This document shows, one piece after another, positions 13,548 through 63,591 of a stretch of DNA of 64,000 nt (the stretch's first letter is position 1; every line of letters starts with the position of its first letter). The DNA is from Hormiphora californensis (Eukaryota; Animalia; Ctenophora), in contig CM035358.1 of assembly GCA_020137815.1 (NCBI GenBank), forward strand, positions 6,200,001 to 6,264,000. The letters run 5' to 3'. The notes under the pieces are model-generated. The model ran no database searches. It saw only the letters and a program-made list of their open reading frames with translations, and had not been told where the DNA came from. A program made the translations under genes and the position numbers.

Positions 13548-33313
<19,766 letters not shown>

Positions 33314-37230: not shown

Positions 37231-38298
37231 ATGATATTCGGTAACGACAGTCTACACAACGTAACGGGAGACCCAATATGGGATCCAATCATGAACACCA
37301 GTTACGCGTTCATTGTAGCCCTCTGTTTCCTTGTCTCCCTGCTCTTAAACCCTGCCCTGTTTGTTTACCACCTCTCCATCCACCTCTCCATCCCCTCACT
37401 CCTCTACCGGGTCCTCAACCTTGGAGACTTCCTAACAACAACGATACTCTGCCCTTATATCTTCTACGGACTGGTCACACCGGAATTAGTTCCCCACCTC
37501 GCACCCGCCACCATATGGCAGCGCATCTACTCAGGGATCTTTGGGTTCCTACTCTTCATGAGCGTTAGTGTAACGACTGTATTGTCAGCTAATAGGGTGT
37601 ACGCAATCAAACGACCGCTTCGTAAACTCAACTATCGGTCCGCAGTTATTTACCCTCTAACTGTTGTTGCATCCGCTGCAATGATAGTGATGTTAGTTCA
37701 GTTCTTTCTAAATAAGAACTGGAACAGATACCTGTACAGCACTAATCGACTGAAACTAATGCTTTTCAAGGAGGGAACTAACGAGATATCAAACTGGCCC
37801 GAGCTTGCTTATGCAGGGTGTTTGCTACCGGTAGCAGTTATCGGGTGCGTCTGCGCAGTGGTCACGGGCAGAGAAATCATGAAGCAGAAGAACGTTTGTA
37901 ATACCGTCTCAAAGAGAAATAACCGCAGTTCTATGACAGTGGTATTCCTTTCTTTAGGGATCCAGGCAGCCATTTTTCTGGTTTTTGTCCAATTTTTATA
38001 CTCCCTGCTAGCACGAGATAACTACTCCTACGCTTCCCAGTATTTCATGTATGGAAATTCCTTGTTTTGTACACTAATCCTGTCAGTTATCAACCCGATT
38101 ATCATTGCAACTCGCTCATCAGAGTTCCAGAAGTTTTATAGGAAGAAAGTCCTGCTGATACAGTCGACTGTCATGGCAACAACCGGAACCCCGGGAGAAC
38201 AGAGGGTGGGTGTTGTTACGACCCATCACAAAACTGAGTTTGCTAAATCAGAAGTTATTAATTTGCGGCTTCTTGAAAAGAGGAGATCTTCTATTTGA
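37231..38298 (+). CDS. Intronless rhodopsin-like 7TM GPCR
   Basis: 355-aa ORF with seven hydrophobic segments, N-terminal N-glycosylation sites (NDS, NVT, NTS), TM1 N, TM2 LxxxD, an NRV variant of DRY followed by AIxxP, and TM7 INPII. Confidence 0.85.
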   Translation: MIFGNDSLHNVTGDPIWDPIMNTSYAFIVALCFLVSLLLNPALFVYHLSIHLSIPSLLYRVLNLGDFLTTTILCPYIFYGLVTPELVPHLAPATIWQRIYSGIFGFLLFMSVSVTTVLSANRVYAIKRPLRKLNYRSAVIYPLTVVASAAMIVMLVQFFLNKNWNRYLYSTNRLKLMLFKEGTNEISNWPELAYAGCLLPVAVIGCVCAVVTGREIMKQKNVCNTVSKRNNRSSMTVVFLSLGIQAAIFLVFVQFLYSLLARDNYSYASQYFMYGNSLFCTLILSVINPIIIATRSSEFQKFYRKKVLLIQSTVMATTGTPGEQRVGVVTTHHKTEFAKSEVINLRLLEKRRSSI

Positions 38299-38844: not shown

Positions 38845-40225
38845 TTAGTGGGAGACACTAGCGTGGTACACACAAAAAAATGCGCGCCACACCAATTTCG
38901 TTTTTCAAAAAACACGCAAGAAAAAGTTTTTCAAGATCGACTTTTCACGTTTTGGCTCATAACTCCTGTTCCTGATAAGATAAAGACTTCAAACCTTCGC
39001 CATTCGATGGGGCTTGAAATTCCCTTTCCAACGGTATGCAAACGATTTCTGTAGCTCATCAGGAACCGGAGATATGATCAATTATGATAATAACCGCGTA
39101 AGTTTCCCCAGTGTCCCGATCTCTGGAATATGCAGGAAAGATAAATGCAAAAATTCTGCAGCAAAACAAAATCTATGCAGCAAAATGAAAAAATATTAGG
39201 GCACTGCAGCAGCAGCTGCTACTGCAGCAGAAGATATTTCCCATACTTACACACAGAGCAGTGCTGAGTGCTGCAGCAGTGTGTAACATATTCTATCTCT
39301 CTGTTATAACAGAGAGATAGAATATGTTGGGGCATGCCCCAGTTGTGCCTAGTGCACCGACAACAGTCAAGTAAGGGGGAAGGGGGAAGAAAAGAGAGAT
39401 TCATACTTTAACATAGCTCTCTTTTTTCCCCATAGCTTTACAAAGGGGTGAGATCGTTACTGTCACTGTTGCAGTCTCTGCAGTGGAATTTTCTTGGAAT
39501 TTTCCATCTCTGCAGTCCCTGCTGCAGTGCTGCAGGGACTGCAGCAGTGGAATTTTCAAGGAATTTTGATAACTGTGAACTGCAGGAACTGCAGTAGGGA
39601 ATATTCTAGGGAATATTCTAATCTTATAGGGACTGCAGGGGACTGCAGTAGGGGAATATTCCAGGGAATATTCTAATCTTATAGGGACTGCAGTAGGGGA
39701 ATATTCCAATCTTATAGGGACTGCAGTAGGGAAATATTCCAATCTTATAGGGACTGCAGGGGACTGCAGTAGGGGAATATTCCAGGAAAAATTCCAATCT
39801 TATAGGGACTGCCGGGGTATTTTTTCCAATGAAATCATGTTTAGGACGGTAGAAAATTTGGAAAATCCCTATCCATGACTGCAGCAAAAAGTAAAATTCT
39901 TGCAGCAAAACGAGCCCCCAAAATGAAAATTCCAGGCGTGAAAAAAAAAATCGGGACACCGGGTAAGTTTCCTTCGGCATTATCATAATTGATTATATCT
40001 CCGGTTCCTGATAAGCTACAGAAATTGTTTGCATACCGTTGGAAAGGGAATTTCAAGCCCCATCGAATGGTGAAGGTTTGAAGTCTTTATCTTATCAGGA
40101 ACAGGAGTTATGAGCCAAAACGTGAAAAGCCGACCTTGAAAAACTTTTTCTTGCGTGTTTTTTGAAAAACGAAATTGGTGTGGCGCGCATTTTTTTGCGC
40201 GTACCACGCTAGTGTCTCCCACTAA
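38845..40225. mobile_element. Non-autonomous DNA element with ~250-bp TIRs and internal minisatellite
   Basis: TTAGTGGGAGACACTAGCGTGGTAC ... GTACCACGCTAGTGTCTCCCACTAA; internal GGGACTGCAGTAGGGGAATATTCCAATCTTATA repeats at ~39585-39810. Confidence 0.8.
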
Positions 40226-42467
40226 TTTTCATCTTGCGAGTCGAGTGTGAGATGTTAGATAAGTATTAACAAGATAGACAACGATATAATGGTACTAAAT
40301 CAAATAAATTGATAGAAGCTTTCGAGATCACTGTGTATCACGTCTTCAGCTATGATAAGTAGTTAAGTTGGAATGTCAAAAGCTGGTTAGCAAGTGTCAT
40401 GTGATTGGGAATTAGCTAACTCTAAGCTATGTGAGAAGTATACTGACAGCTAGATCGTATGCATCTCACATTACATTATGACCAAGCCTTGATCCTGTTG
40501 GCAGTGACAATGTCACTGACATGTGAAACGGTAGGGCAGGGAAACACAGCATTATGAATACATAATGCAATAATTCTTGTTTTTGGAATTTCCCAAAAAA
40601 AACTGGGTGGTTAAAGGCCTTTTTACAGGTGCGTGCTGCCAAAAAAGTATCCTGTAGGTCGTACTGAAATGGCTCTCTGCCCTAATCACAATACCAATTT
40701 AAGGCTCAACTGTTATGGCTAATTCAAAATCTATCTGACAAGAAATGTCAAGCGGCTTGAGTCAAGCCCTAACCCCAACCCAATACTGTATGCTGAAACT
40801 AAACACCCAGATTTTAACGTTTCTCGAAAAGTTTGGGCGCCGTTACAATCTGGTTTTTACAGGCCTGCCAAGAAAGTAACTGGGCCTGCACTAAAGTAGC
40901 TCTCCTCAGATCGCTCTCTAGCATCTAACCACTCAACCGATTTGGGTAATCCAAAGACGAATCAGCACAGCAGACAGCTGACACGGGAAACTCAAAACAA
41001 AATAATACTACACAACCCACTAGGGACCTCAGGGGTGAAACGGTGCAGAGCAGCCACTAGACACGGTGAGGTGTGAATCAAGTCATCATATGGTCCCTGT
41101 GTGGGTTGTGCAGAAAAATAACTTAATCAAACGCCTACACACTAAAAAATTGATAAATAATATAAAAATAGTCTCTCATCACTAATGACATTTCAAAGGT
41201 TGAAGTCAAAATTGTCCAGTGTTGGTGTTTTTATGGGTACCCTACAACCTCTCAAGCTCCTCAAAGTTGACCTAAGGATGGAGAATCTCAACTTTTGCTT
41301 TATTGTAGCCATTACCTCTGGATATCTTTCTCCGTGTTTTTCCTCAATCCTTGAGGCAGCTTTCTTCAGGGTTTTCATGAATTCGTCTCCGAGTCCTCCT
41401 GTAGTTGACATTATCAGAGGGGTGAATGAGCCCCCTTCCACCATCTGTACTCTCCTCATGTAGCTTCTCTTCTTCCTCTGTTCATGGTCTCTGTACAGAG
41501 ATGTTGGAGGTGTTGAGAGATATGATGCAGAATTGGCATGGACAACTCTGACATCGAAGAAGTTCAGTTGTTCAGGCTGCCACAATCCGGTTCCGACAAT
41601 GTCCATACGGGCATCCCTATCTTGATTTGTCCAATGTGGGAGCCTTTCGGCAAAGTCATCACAAGGTTGCAGGAGTCGTTCAGTCTCTACTCCTTTCACA
41701 CCTGCATAGCTGAGAATTTCAGCTGTAGCGTCTCGGATCTTGTCGTGTCTCATGATAGTGTATCCTCCTTTGGCACAACTGAGGGCGTGGTTTACATCGT
41801 TGTCCTTACCGCATGCACATCGGAGGTTAAGATCAGGGAAGTGAAGTCCGAATCTTAGGCGCATAGCGTCATGGAATTCCTGCTTCGTGAGTTCGTAACC
41901 AAGACTATCGATTGGCCGAGCTGTTAGCCATGAGGATGCTCCTGGTTCAGTGTTGAGAGCTAGAAGACGCTGGCCGTAACTATCCATCATTGTGTGGATG
42001 ATCTTGAAGTTTGCTTGATGTCTGGTTTTGGTGGCTAGCTCACACTCTGTAATCTTCTCAGAAACGGCTTTGTCTAGTCGAGCGACAACTGCATGATCAT
42101 GGATTTCTTCAGACAGTAAGTGGTTGACCAACGGTTCTGTGCAAAATCTGGAGTGGGTGTAAGCATGGTTCGCAGTTTCGACAGGGTTGTCCAAACCTAG
42201 TCCGCCCATTCTGACCGGTAGAGCCAACAAGCAGCGTTGCTGATCATTTACGTGGGTGCCTAGTAGAACCGGGATCAGCTCGTGTCTAATAATGTCCTCC
42301 AGGGGCTTGAAGAGCGTTCCAATGTCTGGAACTGTTCTCTGAACATATCCCCATTTGAACTTCAGATTTCTTGTGAAATTGGAGTAGGCTAGATGAGGAT
42401 GGGTGCGACCAATGCTAACCAGATTTTTCAACGAGTCAGCCCAACCTGCGACTAGATCCATAATATA

Positions 42468-42498
42468 TTCAACACTACTTTAAACAAACTAATTTGAG
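42468..42498 (+). other. Spliced-leader-like sequence (5'-truncated) at 5' end of element A
   Basis: TTCAACACTACTTTAAACAAACTAATTTGAG, one mismatch to the copy at 52686-52716; ORF1 ATG 9 nt downstream. Confidence 0.75.
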
Positions 42499-42507
42499 CA
42501 TGACTCA

Positions 42508-43737
42508 ATGACCCCCCTCGGAACGCTGACGATGAACACGACTAAGCAGTGCAAGGAGGAGGAGAACAAGCGGAATGAGGCTGTTATGGAGAAGCTGAGA
42601 AACCATGAGGACGCCAGCAACGATGTTAAACGCGTGCTAAAGGCCTACATCGTCAAGGTCAAACACGATACTAACCTGAAAAATCTGGCCAAAATCAACG
42701 ACGATGCCCTTCATGATGTGGCAGAGTTTCTCGGGGGGAAACCCCTTAACGACTCCGGGCAGAAAACGTACAGGACCCGAACCAGCTTCATAGATTGGAT
42801 AATCATGGCCATAGAAGGTCTGTTTCAACAAGACTGCAGTGCGTGTAAAGGGTCATATACCCTAGAGAGAGGAGCTAAAGCCAAGTTTACCTGTGCCAGC
42901 TGTGGAGGAGGATCCCATGACTGTGAACAGGTGATGAGTCATCCTGCATTGAACGTCCCCGGCTTTGTGTGGGTGTGCGACGGATGCACCAAGAAGTTTA
43001 GTCTGGAGACTCTTTCAGGCACGGATGATGTAGATGAACCGCCTCAGAGCGGCGCCAGCGAGAGAAAATTCAGTTTCCCATCTACTCAAGCAGCAACCAC
43101 CACTGACAAAGAAGACGAGCCGGAGGAGAAGAAGGAGGCAATCAAACCTACAGAGGTATGTTCTTTCTATCTCAGGAGGAAATGTCGGCATGGGAGAGAC
43201 GGCACCAAGAAGTGGAAGGGGGCAGAATGCCCGAAAAAACACCCGGAAATCTGTAGAAAATACAGTAACTATGGGACCATGAGACGCGGGGGTTGTAATC
43301 GAGGGGCAGAGTGCAGATTCTACCATGTACCATTGTGCCGTTCATCGGAAACTCGCCATGAGTGCTTGAAGGAAGACTGCCAACACCAACACCTAAAGAA
43401 TACCAGAAGATCCAACGACGAAGGATGGAAGATAGCCGGGCAACGGAATCGCAACACTTCCGGCCAGTACCAGCCTAAAAACTGGACTCGATCACGATCT
43501 AGTTCCAGAACCAGGAACGCCAGCAACATTTCCAGTGCTGACAGGAATAGGTCCAGGGAACCATCCAGGGAGGACACAAACAAGAGTAAAGAGGAGGATT
43601 TTTTCGAGCGCCTCCTAGAGAGGCTAACAATCTCTCTCCCAGGGCTTGTGGCGTCCGAGATACACAAACACAGGCCAGTCTCGAACATATCGTGGAACAT
43701 TCCACCCGGCACGCAATTGACACAGGGTGCACGCTAA
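42508..43737 (+). CDS. LINE A ORF1 (PHD-like finger + CCCH-type zinc fingers)
   Basis: 409 aa; CSAC..CASC..HDC..WVCDGC followed by repeated C-x-C-x-C-x-H clusters and an RS-rich tail. Confidence 0.85.
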   Translation: MTPLGTLTMNTTKQCKEEENKRNEAVMEKLRNHEDASNDVKRVLKAYIVKVKHDTNLKNLAKINDDALHDVAEFLGGKPLNDSGQKTYRTRTSFIDWIIMAIEGLFQQDCSACKGSYTLERGAKAKFTCASCGGGSHDCEQVMSHPALNVPGFVWVCDGCTKKFSLETLSGTDDVDEPPQSGASERKFSFPSTQAATTTDKEDEPEEKKEAIKPTEVCSFYLRRKCRHGRDGTKKWKGAECPKKHPEICRKYSNYGTMRRGGCNRGAECRFYHVPLCRSSETRHECLKEDCQHQHLKNTRRSNDEGWKIAGQRNRNTSGQYQPKNWTRSRSSSRTRNASNISSADRNRSREPSREDTNKSKEEDFFERLLERLTISLPGLVASEIHKHRPVSNISWNIPPGTQLTQGAR

Positions 43738-46700
43738 ACAAAGGCACCAAAGGAGAAGTATGCGGATCAAAGCTTCTCCTTATTAACGGCAGGAGTCTCA
43801 ACCCTGCCGCCACTAGCAAAACAAAGTGGAAAATGAGATACCTTGCGGACCAAATCACCAGCTCTGATCTACCTGTAATGGCAGTGGGCCTAACTGAGAC
43901 TTGGTGGGATGGAAGAGTGGAGGACGCACAAGTAAAGATACCGGGATACAGTCTGTGGCGAGCAGATAGGGAGACCAGGACCGGGGGAGGCTGTGCTCTG
44001 TTCGTTCATGGCTCGCTGATAGTCACTGATAAAACTTCTTGGGGAGACAACTTCAACAACATGGTTGCTGTGTACATTGCTAGGTGTCACACCATAGTTG
44101 CCTCAATCTACCGCACCAGTGATTACCAAGACCTGCTTGAGACACTACAGGCCTTTATAAACAAGCACTCCCACGAAAGAACTGTCCCTGATCTCTACAT
44201 CATGGGGGACCTAAACCTACCACACCACAATTGGGATCTTTTAACCCTGGGGGGAGACAGAGAAGACAGAATATCAGCAGCAACAGAGAACTTTACACAA
44301 CAAAATTTCCTATGTCAAGTTGTCGACGATGCAACAAGAGAGTCCAGTTTGCTTGATGTAATTTTGACTAATAGACCGGACTACTTTATCAAAACTGAGG
44401 TTGAAGCAACCATTAGTATGTCAGATCACAAAACAGTAGCCGGTGTACTAGGGTATAACATGACATGCACTCCACACTTTAAGAAGAAAAAACTAGATCG
44501 TTGGTCATTCGAAGGAGTGTGTTATCACAAATCGGATATGAATAAACTGAGGGACTTGCTTAGTGATATTGATTGGGATGTTCTTTGGGAATTGTGTGAA
44601 TCACTTGAAAACATTGATAGGCTCACAGCATTCACAAACCTACTAACCCTCACTGTCCTTCAGGTCACATGCTCCAGTGCCCCACTGAAGAAAATCCAGG
44701 ACTACTCCCATCTTGTTAAGGACAATGCACTAACCAAGTTGAAATCAAAGAGGAGGAGGATCGACAGACGAATAAAGAAGCTACAGAAGAAGGGGGCCGG
44801 CCAGACCAGAGTTGCTAAACTAGAAGCCCTTGCAGCTGAGATCATCACCAATATCAAGGAACACATTACCCGAAGTATAAATGCTGAGGAAGACAAAGCA
44901 GTGGCACAGATCAAGAAGAATCCCAAAGCTTTTTACTCTTTTGCGAAGAGGAAAAGAAAAGTACAGTCGACAGTTGGACCATTACTGTCACAGAGTGGAG
45001 AGCTGACGGATGATCCACGGAGGAAAGCTGAAATACTCCAGGACCAGTATGTTAAAGTTTTCAGTGACCCCTCCCTAGTCAACGTAGAAAACGCCCTAAT
45101 GGATATCGAAGAGAGGAAAGCCGAGTTGACAGATATTGAACTCTCCCCTGCAATCATCGAAGGGGCCTTGAAGGAGCTAAACCCACATTCCGCAGCACCC
45201 AAAGGCGATATTCCATCACTGATTCTCCACGAGGCCAGGGATAAACTTTGCTATCCACTATGGATATTGTGGAACCAATCCTTTCACCGCGGGTTCATTC
45301 CCGCCGAACTGAAGAAACAACAAATTGCACCCATTTTCAAGAAGGGCAATAAGAGTCTGCCAGAGAACTACCGCCCAGTGGCACTGACGAGCCACGTCAC
45401 TAAAACCTTCGAACGAGTGGTAAGAAGTCAACTAGCGGACTTTGTGGAAAAGGCAGGGATCATAAACGAGGAGCAGCATGGATTCCGGTCGGGTAGAAGC
45501 TGTCTGACGCAACTACTCAACCATTACGATGCAATCCTAGAGGATCTGAACAATGGCCACGAAGTAGATGTGGCCTATATCGATTTTGCTAAAGCATTCG
45601 ATAAAGTCGATATTCGAATCCTACTGGGCAAGCTGCAAAGATACGGCATACGAGGAAAACTGTTGAACTGGATCGAGGCCTTCCTTACAGGTAGAGCACA
45701 GACGGTAGTGACGGAGGGCTACTGCTCCAGACCAGAATATGTCATCAGTAGTGTGATCCAGGGCTCAGTGCTGGGTCCACTTCTGTTTATTATCTATGTT
45801 AGTGATTTGGCCGCTTGCACGCTGGGTGGTACACTAACGTTTGCAGACGACACGAAGAGCAGGCAATCGATCGAACAAGCAGAGGACATGAAATCACTTC
45901 AGGGAGACCTCGACAGAATCGCCGATTGGTCAAAGAAGAACAACATGCTTCTACATGAGGACAAGTTCGAAATTCTCAACTACACCCTGAACAAAACAAA
46001 GCTTCTACGAGTTCTTCCCTTCAATGTGGAAAACTATCGATACTACAATACAAATGGTGAGGACATTAGCCCTGCACACTGTGTGAAAGACCTGGGTATC
46101 CACATGACCAATGACGCATCGTGGACAACACACATCGGTATCATCACCAGAGAAGCCAAAAGATTAGCTGGATGGGTCCTAGGAGTGTTCAGAGACAGAT
46201 CTACAGCAACCATGGTTACCTTACTGAAATCGCTCATTCGGCCGAAGCTAGAATACTGCTCGCCACTATGGTCGCCATGCCAAACTGGCGAGATTGCAAA
46301 GATCGAGGGAATCCAACGTTTCTTCACACGGAGAATCACAGACTGTGAAGGCATGAATTACTGGGAACGATTAGCCCACCTCAGGATACTTTCTTTGCAG
46401 AGAAGACGGGAAAGATACATGATCATACATATGTGGAAGATATACAAGGGGCTAGCACCTAATAGCACGAACATATCCTTCTACGTCCACCATCGACACG
46501 GTCCGAAAGCAGTTGTCCCTCGGATCATCACATCGGCACAGAAATCAGTCCAGACGCTACGGGATGCATCATTCGGAGTTAGAGCGGTTCAACTCTTTAA
46601 CAGGATGCCCGAGGAAGTACGGCTGGCAACATCAATCGAGAACCTAAAAGTCACACTTGGAGACTTCCTTGCTACCATACCAGACTTTCCACCTGTCAGA

Positions 46701-46757
46701 GGATACTCGAGCCCTAGAGATAACTCCCTTGTTGCCCTGCTCACTGAGGGGAAGTAG
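43590..46757 (+). CDS. LINE A ORF2 (APE endonuclease + reverse transcriptase), intact
   Basis: LLINGRSL, LTETW, DR..GGG.AL, GDLN, LDVILTN and SDH (APE); ENYRPVALTS, QHGFR, DFAKAFDKV, IQGSVLGPLLF, FADD and KDLG (RT). The frame is open from 43590, overlapping ORF1 in the -1 frame. Confidence 0.95.
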   Translation, partial: RGGFFRAPPREANNLSPRACGVRDTQTQASLEHIVEHSTRHAIDTGCTLNKGTKGEVCGSKLLLINGRSLNPAATSKTKWKMRYLADQITSSDLPVMAVGLTETWWDGRVEDAQVKIPGYSLWRADRETRTGGGCALFVHGSLIVTDKTSWGDNFNNMVAVYIARCHTIVASIYRTSDYQDLLETLQAFINKHSHERTVPDLYIMGDLNLPHHNWDLLTLGGDREDRISAATENFTQQNFLCQVVDDATRESSLLDVILTNRPDYFIKTEVEATISMSDHKTVAGVLGYNMTCTPHFKKKKLDRWSFEGVCYHKSDMNKLRDLLSDIDWDVLWELCESLENIDRLTAFTNLLTLTVLQVTCSSAPLKKIQDYSHLVKDNALTKLKSKRRRIDRRIKKLQKKGAGQTRVAKLEALAAEIITNIKEHITRSINAEEDKAVAQIKKNPKAFYSFAKRKRKVQSTVGPLLSQSGELTDDPRRKAEILQDQYVKVFSDPSLVNVENALMDIEERKAELTDIELSPAIIEGALKELNPHSAAPKGDIPSLILHEARDKLCYPLWILWNQSFHRGFIPAELKKQQIAPIFKKGNKSLPENYRPVALTSHVTKTFERVVRSQLADFVEKAGIINEEQHGFRSGRSCLTQLLNHYDAILEDLNNGHEVDVAYIDFAKAFDKVDIRILLGKLQRYGIRGKLLNWIEAFLTGRAQTVVTEGYCSRPEYVISSVIQGSVLGPLLFIIYVSDLAACTLGGTLTFADDTKSRQSIEQAEDMKSLQGDLDRIADWSKKNNMLLHEDKFEILNYTLNKTKLLRVLPFNVENYRYYNTNGEDISPAHCVKDLGIHMTNDASWTTHIGIITREAKRLAGWVLGVFRDRSTATMVTLLKSLIRPKLEYCSPLWSPCQTGEIAKIEGIQRFFTRRITDCEGMNYWERLAHLRILSLQRRRERYMIIHMWKIYKGLAPNSTNISFYVHHRHGPKAVVPRIITSAQKSVQTLRDASFGVRAVQLFNRMPEEVRLATSIENLKVTLGDFLATIPDFPPVRGYSSPRDNSLVALLTEGK

Positions 46758-47954
46758 TTCACTCATATAGGGAATATCATTTTATCACGCGGAAGCTCTG
46801 CTGAGTGCGTTGTATTCATTTGTTATGTATACTAAAACTTATTTGTAATCTTGTAATCTTGTAATCTTGTAATATTCATTTCTGAATTCTTCTGATCCGA
46901 TCACAGCTCCCAAGTGTCTGGCTCCTCTCTTGGTGACAGTGACTCCCGTATCCTTGAAAAGGTTGATCGCCTCATCGTAGTATTCCGGTTTTACTATTAG
47001 GATACTCTTCCCTGGGTTGACGTGGTATCCAAATGACGCACCGTTGATGTATACGTCCTCGTACCAGTCAAGTAGATTGGAAATAGTTCCGGCCGCATTG
47101 CCGTCATCGGCAAACCAAGCTTGAAAGGTATCATGTTGCTCTACTAGGTCGATTAGAGGAGCGATACCTACACAGTATAATCCCATAGAAGAGGGACATC
47201 CCTGGGTGGCACCTTCTTCACTGCTCAGGATATTACCTCCAGTGTACAAGTCGCGAGGGGAACCATAGAGGTTGGTGAAAAATGTGTTCATGATGGGGCA
47301 GACCACACTGGAGTGATATAAAGCCAATTTGCGATTTAACGAGTTGAAGGCATTGCGGGCGTCTAGGAGTAGTACTCCCTGGCATTCCGGGCTTGAAAAC
47401 TTGTCGTTGAGCGCATGTATAGCTGCCTCACAGCCACCATTTGTCCCTGCGGCAAGCTGGAACTTCCCTGCCGTCACCTGAATTTCTTGCTTTTGACTTC
47501 TCATAACTGATTTGGCCAAAACTCTCCTCCATTTATTTATTTATTAAATCTATATAATAATTTACACAGTTTGATGTATAAAATTATCAGCCCCTTTTTG
47601 TGGGCAAAAAACGGTTGATCAAAGATATGAGTCCATTTAAGAGTCCAGTTTATAAAGATAGTCTATGAAAAGTTTATCGCTCCTTTCCGTATCCGAAATT
47701 GTCTTTCGGGATTCGATTCCCTTAACTCCTTCAATGTAAGGTGAAGTTCCCTCCTCTCCGTTCTCTCTACGAGTGACATATCTCTTGACAAGTATACACC
47801 GCAGTACGATTCGGACTGTTTCAACTGCCTAGCCTTCTGGAGAAGGCTCAGCAGCATTTCTCTACTCTGTAGCTTCACGATCACGGGTCTCTCCCTTCCT
47901 TCCCGTTTCAAACCCACCCTTTTAGCTACAACAATAGGTTTCTCATCAAGTTTA

Positions 47955-50900
47955 CAAGTTTACAAGTTTACAAGTTTACAATTAAAGTTTTATTTATAAC
48001 GAAACAGGCCTTCCCTGAATGGGTCCACCTAAATAAATATTAAGTTAAAAACTATCCCTTCACACTCACACTCATCAGCACAGCACAGCACATTGAGGCG
48101 AAAGGTCATTTGGAAGTGGCGGGTACCCTCTGACTGGAGGACGATCATGAAATCCTGTCAAGTAATTGCCCAATGCTGATTTGAACTGATTCAAGCTCAC
48201 ACATGAATTGACAGCAGCTGGTAGAGTGTTCCATAAATGAGCTGCTCTAGGACCGAATGAGCAATGAAATTGATTAGCTCGTTTGGTTTCTGCTCTGTAG
48301 GGGTAAGGTGGAGGGACTATCCGCGTACCCAATCTAGCGTGCTGTTGAATTACTAGGTGGGCGGAATTCGGTACAAAACCCTGAATCGTCTTCCACACAT
48401 GGATCAGCATATAGCGCTGCCTCCGACGCTGAAGGGACATAAGATTGAGCAATTTCAGCCTATCCCAATAGTCATGACCCTTCATACCATCAAGACGTCT
48501 GGTGAAACATCTCTGTACATTCTCAATAGCCTTGATATCACTGGCCTTGGATGGGCTCCAGACAAGGCAACAATACTCTAGTATAGGCCTGACCAAAGAC
48601 TTAAAGAGTTGCAACATGACGTCTGGTGAACGGTCTCTAAACACACTGAATATCCAACCACACAAAAGGGAAGCCTTCCTCACAATAGTAGAGATATGTT
48701 TCGACCATGTACCGTCCGCAGACATCTGAACACCTAGGTCGCGGACATCCGGATCTGGCATCAACTGAACCCCTGACCCGGTCGTGTATGAGAACACCTC
48801 TGCTGAGAAAGGAAACTCACTGAAGATCGCCGATTTATTCAGTCTATAACTCAGGAGTTGGAATTTGTTCTCATGTAACTTCATGTTATTCATCCTTGCC
48901 CACTCAGTAACTCTCAAAAGATCGTTCTGAAGGCAGGCCTGAGTAGTCATATCCGATATAGCTTTCATCAACTTAGTGTCATCGGCAAAAGTGAGACACA
49001 TGCTACCATCCAGCACTGATTCCAGGTCCAGGATATAGATGAGAAAAAGTAGTGGTCCAAGCACACTGCCCTGGGCAACCCCACTTAGTACGTCAACCCA
49101 GAGTGACCTAACTCCATCCACCATTACACACTGTTTCCTGCTCAGGATCCACGCACTGATCCATTTATGAAGTTGTCCTCCAATACCGTACCTTTTCAGC
49201 TTGGCCAGCAAAACATTGATATCAACTGAGTCGAAGGCCTTGCTAAAATCCAAATAAATTATGTCAACTTCCTGGCCATTGCATAATTCGTTTAAAATGT
49301 AGTCAACGTGGGTAAGAAGCTGAGACATGGTGCTGCGCCCAGTCCTAAATCCATGCTGTGTCTCACTCTGTAAGCCCATTTCGTCCAAGTAGTCAACTAT
49401 CCGCTTCCTAACCAGCCGCTCAAACACCTTAGATAGGTGGCTCGTTATAGACACAGGGCGATAATTCTCAGGTTTCGATTTAGCCCCCTTTTTGAACAGC
49501 GGTGTAATGAACTGTTGCTTCAGGCAACTAGGGACAGTACCGTCTTCAAATGATCTGTTCCACAGCATCCAAATCGGGTATGACAAGCTACTGCTACACT
49601 GTTTCAGAACACAGGAAGGAATGCAGTCTGGAGGGGAGGCTGAGAATGGTTTCAGTTCCCCCAACGCAGTCTGAATACAATTCTGCGAGAACTCCAAACT
49701 TGTCAGGATCTCACCGAGGTCCTCAACGTTACCAGCTGCCTCTGTGGGGTCGATAGCGGAAGGGTCGCTAAAAACGCTGGAAAACTGGTGTTGGAGTAGT
49801 CCAGCCTTCTCTTGAGGATTCACAGTTAGTGAACCATCTTCACGCTCAAGGGGTGCAACTGAAGATCTGACTTTAGATTTCTTCTTGACATGTGAATAAA
49901 AGAACTTCGGGTTCTCTTTAATTACGTCAACAGCCTTCCTCTCTGCCTTCTTTTCCCTTGATATCAAGTGTTCCTTTATCCTGCCGATTATATAGTCAAT
50001 CTGTGATTTCCGTTCTCGCGTTTAAACAATTTACGTCTCCTGCTGGTCAAGTGCTTCAGCTCTTTGTCAACAAAATCCTTCCTGATTTTCTTCAACCGAC
50101 AGTGTTTCTTAACAACTTTGAAAACTTTATCACGCATGGCCTCCACAAAAAGGGAACCATCCTCATCTCCCAGTTCTTCACATTCCGTCAACATTTGATC
50201 CCAATCAGTAGCCGCTAGTTCCGCATCAATACTAGTGAAGTCGGCCGACTGAAGATCCAATTGCCGATAACCCTCAAGTGTACTGGGAAGAAATAAACTT
50301 TTAGGACCGAGAGGGTTGAAAGAGAGTTCACATGATACCCAGGAATGATCCGAGATGCCCCCATCCGTAATAGAGATATCGCTGAAATATTCCGGGCGGT
50401 TAGTAAACACAAGGTCTAACGTGTTGTTGCCTCTTGTAGGGCCCTCGACAACTTGGGATAGAAAGTTTGCGTCCATGAAATCAGCAACAACATTGTAGTT
50501 AGGCTGGTCAACCGGAACAGACGACCCATCAGCCCACTGAAAAAGAGGAAGATTAAAGTCCCCAGAAACTATGACCTCTGGTAATCGATCATCACTGTGA
50601 TTATCAATAAAAGTCTGGAGATTGTCCATCAGCTTTTGAAAATCTAACACACTTGACTCAGAGCGATACACAACAGCATAAATAGTGTTTATTTGTTCAA
50701 CATAAACAGCACACATATTGTTATTCGCACTCGCAAAACATGTAGTATCAGAAACAGCCAGCGAACATTGAACATATAAGGCACAGCCACCGCCCACTCG
50801 GTTTTCTCTATCACTTCTATACACGTCATACCCTGGTATCTGAACCTGAGCATCAGAATGATAGCCTTTAAACCAAGTCTCAGTTACTGCAATGGTTACT

Positions 50901-51962
50901 ATGGGAGTTTTCTCTTGCTTAACATAGTCTCTAATAAGCCCAAGTTTCCAACATGTATCACCTGCTGGACTTAAACTTCTCCCATTTAACAGTAAAAGTT
51001 TGCTCGTAGGCGAGACAGGCCCTAACGTTCCCTCCACGTTCGTCTTGGATCCAGTCTCACGTCTAGCATTTCTCTCATTCTCGCGTCCATTCTCGCGTCC
51101 ATCGCCCCCAAGAGTCTTTCGAAAAAAGCCTGCTCATCAAATGGGGCTGGCTCCCGTGATGCATTGGAGCTCGGTTGCTGGGACCGTGGTATATTAGTGT
51201 TCCTATCCGTAGTGTTTGTAGCATAGGGTGTCATGGTTTTTGGCCTGCTCACGTCGGTTGCCTGGGTGTTATTTGGCTTCGTGTTGGCAGGAGCACGACG
51301 TGTGTTCCTCAGATGCTGAAAACGACAGTCAGTCTTGAGACATTGATGACTGAACTGCGAGGAACGACACAGGGGTGGGTGGAAATAGCGACATTCCTTA
51401 CCCAGCTGACATCCGTACTTCTTCATAGATCCATGTGAGCAGTACTTCCGGCACAGTGGAGGGTGTGACTTCTGGCAAGCAACTCCATTGACATTCTTCG
51501 TTCCAGCACGACCATGCTTACAGCGATGTTGAAGGTATTGCTGGCACACTGGGATTGGTTTGTCTGCCTCACTATCGATCTTTTTCTCTGTTTCCTTGGG
51601 TAGTTCTTTCTCCTTCCTGTCCCCGGCTGTGGTCACCTCCCCTGGTTTCTCGCCAACCTCAGCCGTCGACAAGAAACTGAACTTCCTCCTCAAACTGTCA
51701 TCATTTGCCTCACTAGCTGCACTTTTAGGAGGACTGGCAAACTCCCCGTTTTCGCCAGAGAAAGTTTCCAGTCTGTTCTTTTTCATGCAGCCTGAGCAAA
51801 TCCAAACAAAACCAGGGACACTACACTTGGGCTGCTCCTGGATTAGGTGGCAGTTGTGGCTACCACCACCACAGCTACTGCAGTTGAACCTGGATTTTTC
51901 TCCTCGTTTCATTGTGTAATCCAACTCACAGGTCTCGCAAAACTGAGGGAAGAGACCCTCGA
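47955..51962 (-). mobile_element. 5'-truncated CR1-group LINE (element C) inserted in element B
   Basis: Starts within ORF1 at AIEGLF, homologous to element A ORF1 (MAIEGLF). PHD/CCCH region, ORF2 APE-RT, and tail (TTGTAAAC)n at ~47955-47982. Confidence 0.9.
48075..51127 (-). pseudogene. LINE C ORF2 (APE + RT) broken by a frameshifting deletion near 50020
   Basis: ORFs 51037-49988 (APE: VTETW, GDFN, LDL, SDH) and 49967-48075 (RT: ENYRPVS, QHGFR, DFSKAFD, QGSVLGPLLF, FADD). The segment aligned to element A around RRRKLFKR/ERKSQID is shorter and out of frame. Confidence 0.85.
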
Positions 51963-52685
51963 TAGCCAAAACGTTCTCTATCTCACATTTCAACACAGAT
52001 TCAGATTCCGCCTCAACTTCCGGTAGACCAAACACCATCAGATTTTTGGATCTGTCTGGATCTGGACTCGAATCAACTTTTTTGCCATGAGCTTTCCCTT
52101 CATCTTTCTTGATATTTTTCGGTGCAAGAGCAGACCTACAATTCTGCGTCAAGACAGTTGAGAAAGAGCGCAGATCTTTCTGCACTGTTTCGGTTACTCG
52201 ATGTAGTTGAGTGTCCTGAAGCTCAATGACCTGCTCTTGTAACCTAATAGTCTTTCTCAACAGGTCATCCATCTCAACTCTCAATATATCCTCTTTTTTC
52301 TGCAACTCCAAACTCTTTCTCAACAGTTCATCTCTTTCTTCCTTTAATTCCAACTCAGGCGACTTCTCGACGTTGAAACGATGTTGGAAGTACTTTAGAA
52401 GTGGCAAGGTCGACATAAATACATCTTCTAATACAGATGCCAAATCACGTTTCGTGTGGGATGAGTGGATATTGAAAGATGTCGGTATTTCCCTGATATC
52501 CTCAGGGCTACTCCCTAACTTTCTGGCTAAGTCCGGTGAAGGAATCCCTGCATACTTGACCATGGTCAGGATCCGGCTCGCATACCAATCCAAATCAGCC
52601 TGAGTCAGCTCCTCTTGACGTACTGGAATAACTGTCATATCGTACGGTCTGCCCATAGGGGCTGTTACACCACCATATCTACCTG

Positions 52686-52729
52686 CTCAAATTAATTTGT
52701 TTAAAGTAGTGTTGAAAAGTTTGAAACTC
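52686..52729 (-). other. Spliced-leader-like 44-nt sequence at 5' end of element B
   Basis: GAGTTTCAAACTTTTCAACACTACTTTAAACAAATTAATTTGAG. It is shared (30/31 nt) with the 5' end of element A and, from memory, resembles ctenophore SL exons ending AATTTGAG. The first 6 nt overlap the TSD. Confidence 0.75.
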
Positions 52730-53511
52730 TCCTCCAAGTTTCACCTATTCCAATAGGTCGAGTGCCACCATCGGATTTCGCCATGGGTATGAGTTTGGAA
52801 GCGCAGAAGATATCAAGGAATCGAGGGTGGATGGGACTGGTTGCTAACTTCCGGGCCACCATGCTGAGACTGTCACGGAGGTCGGCGGTAGATCTTTTGA
52901 ACTTCCTAGAACAAAGGATCCGTTGGATGCCGACCGCGTCTAATCCACTCGGGCCTGCAGATCCTCGCAGGTTTCTGGCACATTTGTAGATCGACTCGCC
53001 TGTAATTTTGTCGAAAGTTACAGGAACACTCAGATTTGAACGTTTCCCGAAAAGTTTGAAGCGGGGGGTTCGAAAGTTTGGACAAGTTTTTGCTTAGCTT
53101 TTGAAAATAGTCCAACGCACATTTTAATTTTAAATGTAACGCGCGAAATATAATATAACTACGCTGCAAATGTGCGCGCCAAATAAGGCCAAATAAAAAT
53201 TTCAGCTTCCAAAAATTTCAAAATCGAAAAACAAAAGTTTTCTGTTTTTGTTTTTAGGGTTTTGTATTTGTTTTCGTCTTTTACTCGTGTATCCATCACT
53301 TTTAGTACTTACAAACCATCTAGAAATGTCAAAAGGTATATCTTCAATGAAATTTTTCGTTAAAACTTTACTTTGAATTGCATTATTAACAAATTTCTTC
53401 CCCTCAGACACCCACATAACCCGTGCATGGGCCGATATTGGCGAACTGAGGACAGCTGTAAGTTCATCTGAATCCATTCAGCGGTTATGAACCTAACATA
53501 CCATTTTTCAG

Positions 53512-56500
53512 ATGAGTGGGGTTGAAAGAAAGCTGATAGAGTACAACGCCCAGAGGAACCACCGTGGAAATCGACCACTTTTTACTGACCGTGATGTCAC
53601 CAACATCACAGCTGATTCAGTCCCACGAATGGTTGTTGAAACACGGGATCCTAGACTCGATAACCTCCGTCGGGAAACCGATCCCACCAGCACTGCCAGA
53701 CTTTCATCCTCTCCCCTGAGGAAAAACCGGAATGAGGTTCATTTTAGTGACACTGAGAGTGTATCTACCATTCACAGTTCAGCCCGACCTGTATCTGACC
53801 CTAAAGCATACGAGCAGGGAATGATGAAGCTGAAAGAAACAATTCTCCGGCAAAAGCAGCAGTTAGCGACAAAGAAACGTAATCCTGAGGAGCAAGAGGT
53901 TCGATTCTTGGACCCTGCCATTTACAATACCTCAAGGACAACTAATAACAACAGTGCTTCCAGCAGTAGAGTACCGGGTGCCGCCAAGGATGTCGCCCGT
54001 AAGAGAATTAAAGCCACAGCCCCTGTTATACAAAACTATCCGGGGTGTAACGAAGCACAGAAACCTGTTAGAAAAGTTGTGCAACCTGCACCAGCTGCTG
54101 AACCTGCTCCTCCAGCTGCGGTAACTAGACATCCAAAACGGAGGGTAACTGCAACAACAGGCGATAAAGGTGCCATTATAACGACCTCTAGTTGGCGGCA
54201 AGGTGCCGCACTGACCCGCAAAGTTCTGAGCAACAAAACCCAGGAGACAACTAGCACGACCACGAGTGTCACCAGTGAAAAGTCAAGCGAGAAATCTGAA
54301 TCGGTAAAGCAGCCGAAGTCTAAGACATTTATATCAGCTCCCCCAAAACGGGCAAGGTCCCCAGTGAAAAAGACTAAAATCAACACGCCTCCAGTGGAAG
54401 AAGTCCCCGTTGTGAAGGCAAAACATTATGACACGGCGAAGGTGCAGCGGTATATTGAAAACACGAGGAAGCAGCGGAAGAAGCAGCAACAGGACGAGAA
54501 GAAGAAGTTAGAGGAGGCTGAAAAGAAGAAGGAGGAGCGATTGCAGGATTTGTATAGTTTTCAAAAGAAAGCTCTGAAACGAAGTAAAGGTGCTGCTTCT
54601 CCATCTCCAGTCTCATCGAACGAGCAGTAGATCAACTAAAACCACCTCCAGTGAGAGTGAGAAGGAGAATACCCTGACCGATCCACACTGAGACAGATCA
54701 TCCTGAGAAGGAAGACGAAGGGAGAGTTCCTGAGGATATTCCGCTAATGCCAGACTTTCTTCCGTTGAGAGATCACTGTGGGATTGTGGATATCCCGCTC
54801 ATTCCACCCACCGACACTTTAGATAGGACTCTCACTGAAATCGAGGTACCAACAACCACCACCACAGCAGCAGGAATCTGAAGAACCGGAGTTACTGGAA
54901 CAGTATCTGGAGCCAGTTCGGTCTTCTCCCCAGCTGGAAATGTATAGTGAACAGAAGAGAAGAATGGACGCGATTCGGCAAACTGCCTTAGCACTGAGGT
55001 AATATTGATGTTGTAATGATCGTGGCACACCCAAGACGTGCCTCAACCCTCCCTATCTAGTAGTTGTGATCATTATATTGCAGTTGTTCTAACATACGAA
55101 CTTGTTTCCAATTCTACTAACAAACCTTATATTCATTTCCAGGCAAAAGATATACGATGAAACGAACCGGTTGACGGCAGAAGCCTCCAAATTCACTAGG
55201 ACTGCTACAACTTTACCTCACAAACACGCCTGGCAGGAAGAGTCAACACGTGATCAGTCACGTGATCAGTCACGTGATGTTGTGTCACGTGATGTTACTA
55301 AGGAGGACCAGGAGGAGGAATCTAGTACTAGTTACGCTAGTTTGATTGATAGGTAGGATACCTGTTACCAATTGCAATCTCCCGCTACCACGGGACCATA
55401 TAACTAGTGTCTAGGGAACCAGCCTCATGATAGTCATTGTTCTAACTACCCAACTTATTTTCCAGGTCCATTTCCCCTCCGGTACGAGAGGAGATTCAGC
55501 CAGAACCTTACCAGTTTCCAGTAACAGCAGATCCGTATAGTATCATCAACATATACGCTAGAAAACGGCAGCTTGGTTAGTTGAGAGAGAGAGAGAGTGA
55601 GAGAGAAAGAGAGAGAGAGAGAGATGGCGTGGGAAAAATTCGTTCCATGCTTGTTAGGTATGCATATCGTTATTCCTGCTTGCGCTAAACTGTCATCCTA
55701 ACATATCTCTATCTTTATCTTTTCAGAGGTGGAAAGGATAGAGGAAGAATCAAGGTTGAGAAAGGAGGCTGAAGATCGTCGACAAGAAGAAGAGGACCGT
55801 GTCGCTAGATTAGAGGAGGAAAGAAGAGAGAAAGAAGACAGATTAGCAGAGAAGCTCGCTGTAGAGATTGAGCAAGATGAGAGGGACATGGAGGCTCTAC
55901 GAGAGAGAACTTTATCTCGGTCTACAACAGCTCTTGAAACTGCTGACCAGACCCACAACACAACCGGGCTGTCCTCAATTCTCGGCCGGTACACGGAGGA
56001 GGAGGAGGGGGAGGGGGTGGAGAAATCAGAGATAAATAATACTGAGTGAGTGTTATTTTAGATTAGTCTAAAAATGTGCATAGATTTTCATTTTTCACGC
56101 TGTTATTATTCTTATTTGGGTTACCTCATGAGTCATGCTCATTACAATAAACTAAAACCTGACAATCTCCAGGTCCCTTCTAAGAACCTCGGACGACTCA
56201 GATGCAGATGACTCTCAACTAATATCCGCTGCCCCTGATCTCACGGAAGAGGCCCTCTTCTCTCCGGGTGGTCTAGAGAGAAAGATGAGGGGTGAACTGG
56301 CGAGATATGATACTTATAGTGCTGGTTTGGAGCATCTGAATACCCTGCAACACGCCCAAACACACGCTGAGTCTCAACAGGATACTGTTGCTCTGGCAAG
56401 GGCCCTACAGGTACCAACAAAATACATATTATTATAGCCCTCACTTGGTTGCCAAACCATGAGATATAGGCGTTATTTGTTTTGACCAACTAGAAGTAAC

Positions 56501-59500
56501 CAACCCACATTCTTCCCCCCTCCTGGTAACACCAATGACCCACCTCCCACGTTCTCTAGAGAGGTAAGGAGGAGCATGCAGTAGAGATGACAGAGCTACA
56601 AGATAAACTAAAGAATGATATGGCAGCCTTTCAAGAGAAACTACAACAACTACAGCAGGTAATATGGGGGGTATTGGGTTGGTATTGCTGCGTCTGAACT
56701 TGAGGGGATTAGAAATTGTAATAATAAAATTTTATACTTGCCATCTCGAACATATTGTAACAAATTTGAAGGTACTAAATATTCTCTCATCCCTCTTTTA
56801 CATGGTTTAGGAGAACATATAATAACATACGTTATTCTCATCTCTCATTCCTCCCTCAGGAAAGTATGATAACCAAAGCGGAGGGTCTGGCACAGCAGGC
56901 TGAAGCTAAGGTTAAGAGCTCAGAAGCCACACTCCAAGCGACACAAGCACTGATCCAAAATCAAGAGGATACAAATAGGGAGTTAGTTAATATGGCTCAG
57001 CATATCCTGAAAGGCCATGCATCCACCAAGCAACAGGGTACGTTTAGAATTTCTAGAGTATTTGGGATGAAATTTCGGTGATGATTTGTAAGTTTCTGGC
57101 CTCTGGGGACAGAGCTTGCAAGTTGCAGTTTGGGGGAAGGGGGCAAAATTCGGTTGTGTTGTTCATTAGCCATCACTCGTTTGAAAAGCGCGCGCAAAAT
57201 GAAAGTACACTTTTCAGCACTCTGTGGTTATGGAAACGCGCGAAAGAGCTTGTTTTCAATTCCGCGCCCACCTTGTGGGACGTGTGTAACAAACTGTCAC
57301 AATAATTAGTAGGGACGATAGTGTCAGTCGATGTCAGGGATCTTAAAATTTCCCTATTCAAGTGTTCGGGGAGCCTCTCCCGAGTAAAATGCGCCCAATT
57401 AGAGCTCCCAATCTTTTCTCGTTCCCTAATTATTCGTGATTATGCTAATTATGACGTCATCAGCAACTACCAGAAATCTACGTCTTAGGGCTTAAATTTT
57501 GATTATAGCTGATAGGGGACCACTAGATTAGTGGGCAAAAAAATTTTCAGGTCGATCGGAGTTATGGGCGTGGCGCTATGGCGTTTTAAAGTGTGTAATC
57601 CGGTGATGACGTCATCAAGGATTATCAAATTAGGTCAACGCGGGGGGTCGAGACCGGGTGCGTTTGATCGAGCCTGATAAGCTGATCAAAAATCTGTAGG
57701 GGTAGATCAATCCCCCAACTAGGAGCCGAGCTATTAGCGTTTTTCGTGTTTTAGGTCACGTGACTTCGTCAAAAGTCGAAAAAATGCTAATAGCTCGGCT
57801 CCTAGTTGGGGGATTGATCTACCCCTACAGATTTTTGATCAGCTTATCAGGCTCGATCAAACGCACCCGGTCTCGACCCCCCGCGTTGACCTAATTTGAT
57901 AATCCTTGATGACGTCATCACCGGATTACACACTTTAAAACGCCATAGCGCCACGCCCATAACTCCGATCGACCTGAAAATTTTTTTGCCCACTAATCTA
58001 GTGGTCCCCTATCAGCTAGTATCAAAATTTAAGCCCTAAGACGTAGATTTCTGGTAGTTGCCGATGACGTCATAATTAGAATAATCACGAATAATTAGCG
58101 AACGAGAAAAGATTGGGAGCTCTAATTGGGCGCATTTTACTCGGGAGAGGCTCCCCGAACACTTGAATAGGGAAATTTTAAGATCCCTGACATTGACTGA
58201 CACTATCGTCCCTACTAAATGGACAAAGTTAAATTGAAACTTTACCTAATATAAAATCACCACATTTATATCACATTTCTATAATTCTCCCAAGATAATT
58301 CTCCCGAGTTTCAATACTGAAAGACTCCAAAAAGTGTTAAAAACTAACTTGTTTCGTCAGGTGGTTCGGTGACAAGTGTAACAGAAACAGCTTACACCCC
58401 CTCCAAGGCAACACCGAACATTTCACAAGAATCTGTGGAGATATCCCATTTAGCTGGTTAGTAGTAGTAACAGTAGTAGTTGGTGTAGTTATTCTGTGTT
58501 ATAATGTCTGGGGGGTTCAGCCCTAAAAATGATAGTAAGATAGTTCCTTTTTATGTCCGTGTCCTCCTCTCTCTCTCTCTGCTTACACACACCGCCAGAT
58601 ATCACAGAATCCCTGTACTTGTAAGAGACGAGACACAGCCCCCTTTATAATGGACTCTCTCTGTATCTTGTTTTAGTAACTATACAAACTATGTGACTGT
58701 GTGCTACAGAAGGGACTTTTATTATTGTCAAGTCTGTGTTATTCGAAAATTATATTGCAAAATGTGTATTTAGCTGTGTGTTTGTATCTTTATTATATCT
58801 CCATTTTCTCCAAACACATTCCCAAATTGTTACTCCCCTCCAGATTCTCCTGGACCTGATTATACTGCTGACTTTGAGACGACCATTAGAACAGAGGTTG
58901 ATAGCCCACTGAAAACGGTACCAAGTGTTAGTGTGATACAAACGGTTAGTTCAACTGTCACATAGTACCCTCCATCCTCCAAACATACCTTTCTCATCAT
59001 GCAATTTCCTTGGTTACCCATGTTATGGTGTTCAACTGACAGGAATATACCATCCTTTTATCATGCCATGCAATATTATTTGCATCGCTTTCAATCTGCC
59101 CCTGGTTCTCCCAAATAACCCGAGTGCTATCCCCTCTCCATTTCTCCCAGATCACCCAATATTCTCTCACCAGGAAATCCCCGAAGAGGAGGAGACTGAA
59201 CACCAAGATAGCACCCTGACACACACAATTGAGGAAGAGATAATAGAGGCCCCAACTAGAGATGCAGGAGATGTTGATGAGACCCCTAAAACAGAAATAT
59301 CGACTGATACAGAGTACTCGTCACCTGAGAAAGGTATGTATAAATCTCATGTTTATCTTTGAGTCGCTGGAGAAAGGTAAATTCTGATATTTGTTTGTTG
59401 CAGATAATTAACATGGAACATGTTACTAATTTATCGGGCATTTTAGAGTTTTTGTCACGGTTACTTTCATTTCAGTTTTCACAATGACTTTCTAGCACAG

Positions 59501-61369: not shown

Positions 61370-61467
<98 letters not shown>

Positions 61468-62948: not shown

Positions 62949-63002
62949 GTACGTGGTAGTGAGAGAAGGGGCTGCACAGGTACGTGGCAGTGAGGGATCA
63001 GG

Positions 63003-63591
63003 CCCAGTGGTGCTCGATTGAAAATCTTAACTCTATCGAAATATTTTGAACGGCAAAATTTAAAGAAAATAGCTCATCTGAACGGCAAAATTCACAATAA
63101 CATAAACCAAACCCCATTTGTGACTAAGTGTGGTTTAATGAACAGTTTAGAACCGTAGATAGGCGGTAGATCGGTAAGATAGAGTCAATTGTTTTCATAG
63201 GTCTACTAGTGAGACTTAGTCAAAATTTGACAAAATGGCTTATTTGATGAGTTAAAATTCAAAACAACCAAAACCAAACCCCATTTGTGACTAAGTGTGG
63301 TCTAATGAACAGTTTAGAACCGTAGATAGGCGGTAGATCGGTAAGATAGAGTCAATTGATTTCATAGGTTTAGTGAGTATTAGTGACACGAATAAGGTAT
63401 AAAGGCGTTAAAAAACGAATATCTACATCTCCGATGTAGCCGAGTGGCTAAGGCGCCATACTTAATACACTCAAGGTACCGGGTTCAAATCCCGCACATG
63501 AATTTTACATTTTTTACTGAAATTTTCCAACGGCAACGCTTTTTTGAACGGCCAATTCAATTTGAACGTTAAGCAATCGAGCACCACTGGG
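63003..63591. mobile_element. hAT-like MITE (8-bp TSD) carrying a tRNA-like segment
   Basis: TSD GGATCAGG (62995-63002, 63592-63599); 18-bp TIR CCCAGTGGTGCTCGATTG; internal ~100-bp direct repeat (63103-63202, 63271-63369). Confidence 0.85.

Follow-up and report, generated by a model that had tools for sequence, protein, structure and literature searches.

Host spliced-leader exons as the 5' ends of unrelated retroelements in the ctenophore Hormiphora californensis, probably acquired through trans-spliced RNA

We analyzed a 64,000-nt window of the genome of the ctenophore Hormiphora californensis (GenBank assembly GCA_020137815.1, contig CM035358.1, forward-strand positions 6,200,001 to 6,264,000), to which all coordinates below refer. 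Between positions 42,468 and 52,729, this window contains two unrelated retroelements: element A, a long interspersed nuclear element (LINE) on the plus strand, and element B on the minus strand, which has only a first open reading frame (ORF1). Both are insertions that have the exon of the host's spliced leader (SL) as their 5' end. The leader probably got there by way of trans-spliced element RNA that was reverse-transcribed into the new copy, and capping of this kind probably recurs within each lineage.

Results

The sequence common to the heads of A and B, a 31-mer at positions 42468-42498 (+) and 52716-52686 (-), has no further copies in the window, even if up to three mismatches are allowed, and matched none of 100 shuffled windows. 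The two elements therefore do carry the same leader-like head, as stated in the initial annotation of this region. Its identification as a ctenophore SL is borne out by comparison with the published H. californensis leader (PMC8527503; this and all other papers are cited for passages of their text), to which the head of B is identical in 44/44 nt and that of A in 30/31 nt, with a single T-to-C difference at position 42489. This leader is described there as present on 56% of the Iso-Seq reads and in 718 genomic copies, and the corresponding Mnemiopsis motif in 491 copies in the Mnemiopsis genome; the leaders of Hormiphora and Mnemiopsis have the end AATTTGAG in common. Rather than starting right at the target duplication, as originally annotated, the leader overlaps it by 4 nt in A and by 5 nt in B.

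Metagenome contigs were scanned with the exact 31-mer of the leader, which yielded 21 matches in 20 loci. These comprise nine mRNA-type 5' ends, one SL RNA gene array with 5S rRNA (L013), and ten retroelement heads. At the mRNA-type loci, the leader is located at most 20 nt from the contig end and is followed after 1-30 nt by a long host-type ORF; seven of the nine have Pfam matches to ordinary host proteins, such as cathepsin, the TCP-1 chaperonin, a PCI-domain proteasome subunit, and Cdc37. We take these nine contigs to derive from RNA, and the DNA or RNA origin of whole data sets was likewise judged from the content of their contigs. Within the two data sets that look genomic, nine of ten loci are element heads and the remaining one is the SL gene, although low-coverage assemblies such as these favor high-copy repeats. 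At least 15 nt of upstream flank are present in 7/10 of the outside heads. It had been predicted that the leader would be found at mRNA 5' ends and, followed by GT, in SL genes, and hits elsewhere were to be examined for how many head retroelements. Nine of the 20 loci are of the mRNA type, the SL gene in L013 continues with GT, and 10 of the 11 non-mRNA loci head retroelements. The leader pattern had no match in viral contigs or prokaryote genomes.

Two leader copies, both continuing into GTAAG, are present in the SL RNA gene array of L013, whose 778-bp unit also includes 5S rRNA. By this gene, the exon is 43 nt long; the first G of the 44-mer listed in the initial annotation is host DNA, and the SL gene has a C at that position. 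In the predicted fold, the splice donor lies inside a hairpin (z -3.9). The published leader, the mRNA-type contigs, and the SL gene in which GT follows thus identify the head of A and B as the ctenophore SL exon. The contig also shows how ctenophore SL RNA genes are arranged, namely in turn with 5S rRNA genes, in tandem units of 778 bp (L013:263-381, 693-830, 1041-1159, and 1471-1608).

Together with A and B, the ten outside loci give 12 heads, which fall into four ORF1 groups without any BLASTP link between the groups (Table 1). ORF2 identity between groups is ~21-32%, and all three ORF2 pieces scanned from the L002-type group had Pfam matches. The join lies at the last base of the SL exon in 12/12 heads. 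The heads match 31-43 nt of this exon, at least 40 nt in nine of the 12 and all 43 nt in two. The SL intron was detected in none of the 12 heads above the 95th percentile of shuffles (three ties), and DNA from upstream of the SL gene in none of nine testable cases (one tie). All heads have an intact ORF1 start downstream of the leader, and the junctions are not located at random truncation points. No second, degenerate leader was found downstream of any of the 12 heads; a leader relic upstream scored marginally above shuffles in one of nine cases, in an AT-rich flank. Between relatives (eight pairs), only 24-39 of the 43 nt past the leader are matching. In one case, that of A, the junction coincides with the position of a second AG in the related L011.

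Because the junction is found at the splice donor, without the intron or flanks of the SL gene, and inside the target duplication, the head was very probably copied by reverse transcription of trans-spliced element RNA, in agreement with the initial annotation. Moreover, four unrelated groups carry a leader that matches the present SL gene, although ORF1 and the 43 nt that come next have diverged. We therefore regard repeated re-capping as likely and favor it over single old captures, an estimate that is limited by the exact 31-mer required in the scan.

A and B are part of a nest of four retroelements, which also includes the element into which both are inserted (host element) and a further LINE inside B (element C). 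The host element has motifs that we take to be CRE-like, and its frame is open over 738 codons once the A and B insertions are removed. Because this frame stays open over the empty sites, the target duplications are fixed at 7 bp for A and 13 bp for B; one of 6 bp for A, beginning at position 42461, would break the host frame and was therefore rejected. A 34-bp near-repeat (91%) at 53025-53058 and 40802-40835 possibly marks the ends of a young CRE-like host element. A 12-nt leader match near the 5' end of the host element (53049), which lies inside this near-repeat, was treated as probably due to chance.

Element A is an intact LINE with both ORFs open. Its ORF2 matched PF14529, PF03372, and PF00078. 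An Atlas search with its ORF1 returned a lead only (0.89). From its C-terminal motifs, A presumably belongs to the CR1 group, for which a 3' tail of short tandem repeats is typical. Element C is related to A (45% identity in ORF1, 39-47% in ORF2) and has one frameshift near position 50000; its junctions show microhomology and no clear duplication. Its in-frame insertion yields a 544-aa fusion, in which an L1-type coiled coil and part of an RNA recognition motif (RRM) are joined to the zinc-finger ORF1 of C.

Once C is set aside, B turns out to be ORF1-only, as initially proposed: the two halves of its ORF1 match an uninterrupted 327-aa database protein (P0005) with three differences in 316 compared residues, and its length without C, taken from the junction coordinates, is ~1.18 kb. 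The alternative of a full LINE with an A-homologous ORF1, based on the 544-aa fused frame, was rejected after the nested C had been recognized. A structure model of the B family (pLDDT, the predicted local distance difference test, 79) had human L1 ORF1p as its top 11 PDB matches (best E 9e-7); with the B alignment as query, a search of PDB sequences yielded no significant match. According to the model, the B ORF1 has an L1-type fold consisting of coiled coil, RRM, and C-terminal domain (CTD). The ORF1s of A and B had been described as non-homologous, and comparison of their profiles, with a probability of 0.15%, agrees that they are unrelated.

The ORF1 start codon follows the leader after 9 nt in A and 29 nt in B, compared to 1-30 nt in the host mRNAs. 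The initial annotation had seen no room for an internal promoter at such distances, a statement that does not hold in general, since 145-190 nt or more separate the leader from ORF1 in six other capped elements, whose 5' untranslated regions (UTRs) are T-rich. The view that the similarity of A and B stops 2 nt past the leader had to be abandoned as well: both share a short upstream ORF (uORF) and a C-rich motif. A uORF of one to four codons, whose stop codon opens the C-rich motif, is located just past the leader in A, B, L010, L011, L017, and L018. Its first ATG is in frame with the motif stop in 6/6 cases, and all three stop codons occur, with the pattern having been written from these same six sequences. 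The motif is common to three unrelated ORF1 types and was absent from the rest of the window and of the 20 loci. It looks more like a translational control element than a promoter, although a promoter role is conceivable, and could possibly serve as a re-initiation or packaging signal. No Rfam match to a ribozyme was obtained past the leader at the gathering score.

Three additional observations concern the outside loci. L011:1-2289, an A-family element capped by the leader, has an upstream flank of 350 nt and stems from the same data set as the mRNA-type locus L015; if this data set is RNA, L011 would represent a transcript that reads through a capped copy. The proteins P0006, P0008, and P0020 (source EukProt) are relatives of both ORF1 families and hint at expression or annotation in a eukaryote data set. 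By eye, a repeat with tandem sub-units is present both at 39400-40230 of the window and at the 3' end of L017, where it interrupts the ORF.

Elsewhere, the window contains a collagen IV gene (17954-26000, +) whose introns are short (~80-140 nt), with branch-point-like words that come to within 12-16 nt of the acceptor. Ten of its splice acceptors were placed from the Gly-X-Y register, six with a matched donor and four from the start of the run alone; the proteins returned when a closely related ctenophore collagen was sought for intron mapping were all distant, and none was used. A single-exon rhodopsin-family receptor (37231-38298, +; weak Pfam match), an exon that presumably encodes part of a fructose-1,6-bisphosphatase (29730-30041, -), a multi-exon gene that we take to be CEP350-like (53512-63021, +), and a tRNA match (14020-14093, -) were also noticed.

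Table 1. Features of the nested retroelements in the window, and ORF1 groups of the 12 leader-headed elements (A, B, and outside loci).
Feature	Position or members	Strand	Remarks
Host retroelement	41193..53023	-	Reverse transcriptase Pfam match; holds the A and B insertions
A target duplication, left	42465..42471	+	7 bp; longest that keeps the host frame open
SL exon copy, head of A	42468..42498	+	Last 31 of 43 exon nt; first 4 nt also in target duplication
A uORF	42500..42529	+	Three codons and C-rich motif
A ORF1	42508..43737	+	409 aa, Cys/His fingers; weak CCCH Pfam match, PHD-like by eye
A ORF2	43743..46757	+	Open; APE endonuclease and reverse transcriptase
A 3' tail	46843..46873	+	8-nt tandem repeats, ~4 copies
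A target duplication, right	46872..46878	+	7 bp
B target duplication, 3' copy	47519..47531	-	13 bp
B 3' UTR and (TAAA)n tail	47532..47662	-	
B ORF1, 3' part	47663..47952	-	Remaining RRM and CTD
Element C	47953..51963	-	5'-truncated LINE in B ORF1; 8-nt repeat tail, without leader
B ORF1, 5' part	51964..52656	-	Coiled coil, start of RRM
B uORF	52648..52676	-	Three codons and C-rich motif
SL exon copy, head of B	52686..52728	-	43/43 nt; first 5 nt also in target duplication
B target duplication, 5' copy	52724..52736	-	13 bp
ORF1 group 1	A, L011		70% identical
ORF1 group 2	B, L018, L010		ORF1-only; L018 and L010 likewise end after ORF1
ORF1 group 3	L002, L005, L006, L009, L012, L020		31-61% identical; endonuclease ORF follows each
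ORF1 group 4	L017		Presumed ORF1

Discussion

According to the mechanism that we propose, the RNA of such an element would receive the leader by trans-splicing, like an ordinary mRNA. Target-primed reverse transcription would then reach to 0-12 nt from the cap, and the end of the cDNA would attach via 4-5 nt of microhomology, as is expected at the 5' junction of a LINE. Element B, which lacks an ORF2, would be mobilized in trans. Occasionally, the acceptor could slip to a downstream AG, and the position of the A junction at the second AG of L011 would fit such a slip.

How the cycle closes is less certain. The capped copy itself may be the propagating form, transcribed from upstream of or within the DNA leader and, at least some of the time, given a fresh leader at the same junction; we consider this a serious possibility that falls somewhat short of being probable. 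In a stricter version, close to what the initial annotation proposed for presumably promoterless elements, the terminal AG of the integrated leader would be re-used as a trans-splice acceptor in the germline, so that read-through transcripts become re-capped to a precise element RNA that can be translated, in a promoter-free cycle. The leader's own end would then be the sole stable junction, because any downstream acceptor shortens the element in each round. L011 and L018 show an AG followed by TTTCAG, an arrangement in which the upstream AG, although it lacks the consensus, is used in the C. elegans germline (PMC4484395), albeit in cis-splicing and in another phylum. By this analogy, re-use of the terminal AG is conceivable, but we regard it as rather doubtful.

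Several observations weigh against a cycle that renews the leader. The leader ends in GAG, while all ten collagen IV acceptors placed in the window are CAG (seven) or TAG (three), and its sole branch-point-like word is located 6 nt from the end, compared to at least 12 nt at six of the seven introns having such a word. GAG is therefore probably a less favored acceptor. Better-looking YAGs (Y, pyrimidine) are present downstream of the leader in 4/12 heads (B, L010, L011, and L018) and should compete with it; downstream YAGs are likewise present in two of nine host mRNAs. The T-to-C difference in A is explained by inheritance as DNA as well as by a later mutation. The sample has its own bias, since the demand for an exact 31-mer selects perfect leaders and renders uncapped or diverged copies invisible. 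Furthermore, 3/10 outside heads have at most 6 nt of flank and were taken as genomic by inference, and L017 was considered an ORF1 solely from the uORF motif and its Cys pattern. Neither relatives of the A ORF1 nor of the B-family alignment were found in viral contigs, and A and B are known here from their DNA sequence alone.

Capped copies could instead be mostly dead-end side products, generated by master elements that keep their own promoter, outron, and YAG acceptor, with the share of RNA that stays unspliced carrying the lineage. This reading has the same first step as the one we prefer and differs from it in how the cycle is closed. It accounts for the exact leader without a GAG acceptor, the leader-based scan would be blind to uncapped masters, and RNA of the Cer1 retrotransposon was found both with and without SL1 (PMC3315495). 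On the other hand, A is capped and has both ORFs open. Indirectly, the database points in the same direction: seven of the 12 B-family proteins of known contig size come from contigs that measure 1,157-1,311 nt, close to the length of the element, which leaves little room for a long 5' extension shared among them. We consider it unlikely that capped copies are mostly such side products.

Even less likely, in our view, is a one-off capture in each lineage, after which the leader was inherited as DNA, transcribed from an internal promoter that starts at its first base and without further trans-splicing. The unusual GAG, the downstream YAGs persisting unused, and the variant base of A would all be accommodated, as would the conserved motif past the leader in six elements and the long 5' UTRs in six others; for dinoflagellates, an integrated leader has been proposed to supply a promoter motif (PMC5585692). 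However, at least four captures would be needed, each still identical to today's SL gene despite a diverged ORF1 and next 43 nt, all 43 nt are kept in only 2/12 copies, and the shared motif opens with an in-frame stop in 6/6 cases using all three stop codons, which gives it a translational look.

An origin of the leader straight from an SL gene or the SL RNA, either by insertion into SL genes in the manner of SLACS or NeSL (PMC4640811) or by template switch or ligation as for U6-L1 (PMC11838501), would invoke events of known kinds. It is nevertheless highly improbable, because A and B reside inside another retroelement with target duplications enclosing the leader, the heads gave no sign of SL intron (0/12) or SL-gene upstream DNA (0/9 testable), the junctions lie upstream of an intact ORF1 instead of at random truncations, and the endonuclease of A is APE, not restriction-like. 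An artefact of library or assembly, with cDNA sequence included in the latter, can practically be dismissed, as can a chance resemblance, given that the flanking target duplications restore the open host frame, that three other data sets show the same heads in independent contigs, and that no shuffled window matched.

Retrotransposons that lack long terminal repeats (LTRs) must rebuild a defined 5' end in each round, for which either an internal promoter or a ribozyme in a co-transcript is known to be used. If several unrelated LINE lineages regularly have a trans-spliced leader of their host as terminus, this would be a further solution, in an animal. If the self-renewing cycle is true, several ctenophore LINE clades have handed their 5' end over to the host, and most dispersed genomic leaders would be portable acceptors. 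Our results offer a concrete reason why hundreds of leader copies, so far unaccounted for, are scattered over two ctenophore genomes, and predict that many of them are element heads. SL-gene counts and 5'-exon annotations in these genomes would then be contaminated by element heads, and this should be kept in mind as a warning. Conversely, full-length insertions can be recognized by using the leader as a sequence tag. Owing to the C variant of A and to species differences among ctenophore leaders, the question of renewal or inheritance is directly testable.

Relation to known systems

Non-autonomous elements that resemble B are known as HAL1 (half-L1; PMC5753468). B is alike in being ORF1-only, with an L1 ORF1p-like fold, an A-rich tail, and a 13-bp duplication, but its 5' end is a host SL exon; the likeness meant here is one of ORF1 fold and structure. 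SLACS, CRE, and NeSL (PMC4640811) also place a retroelement beside an SL exon. These elements insert into SL genes by means of a restriction-like endonuclease, whereas the exon has moved with A and B to unrelated sites, and the flanks of the heads are another retroelement or unrelated DNA rather than an SL RNA gene. L1 is known to form chimeras with small nuclear RNAs (snRNAs) and mRNAs (PMC11838501). The snRNA-LINE chimeras, such as U6/L1, join the body of the small RNA to a randomly truncated LINE, while here we see the exon only, with the ORF1 start intact in all heads.

At the RNA level, the use of host trans-splicing by transposons is documented: ~30% of the long reads of transposable elements in Hydra carry an SL (PMC12220107). 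Full-length RNA of C. elegans Cer1 is not trans-spliced (PMC3315495). Element RNAs that make use of the host machinery are the common feature, but the passages of these two papers describe no integrated leader. Integrated leaders heading LINEs are likewise not mentioned in the passages of PMC9911081, PMC7986045, PMC4558846, PMC12460157, and PMC11067881. The dispersed genomic leader copies of PMC8527503 have the same sequence as our heads, and its text, as far as covered, draws no link to retroelements (0 occurrences of 'retrotranspos').

Dinoflagellate DinoSL retrogenes are similar with respect to the mechanism. For these, 'mRNA recycling' was described, with the trans-spliced leader reverse-transcribed at the 5' end of the retrocopy (PMC5585692, citing Slamovits and Keeling 2008); according to proposals made there, an AG of the integrated leader later acts as acceptor, and the relic has a promoter role. 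The copies reported here similarly start with an SL joined at the exon end in 12/12 heads. The cargo there consists of host genes, but here of retroelement ORFs (A, B, and ten outside heads), and the relics that stack in dinoflagellates are absent downstream in all 12 heads. In parasitic flatworms, 597 discarded partial-leader loci were noted near LTR and LINE elements, together with a one-sentence suggestion that trans-spliced retrotransposon transcripts had integrated (PMC12582326). The passages of this paper give proximity within 500 bp only, without analysis of junctions, duplications, or families. In our case, the near-complete leader is the terminus of the element inside a target duplication, in four ORF1 types. 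We found no paper on SL-headed LINE families in ctenophores, or on junction-level analysis in any animal, in a search that most subscription papers and Repbase reports lay outside of. The principle is thus already in print for flatworms and for dinoflagellate retrogenes; to these we add a ctenophore, in which several unrelated LINE-type lineages have the host SL as their 5' terminus.

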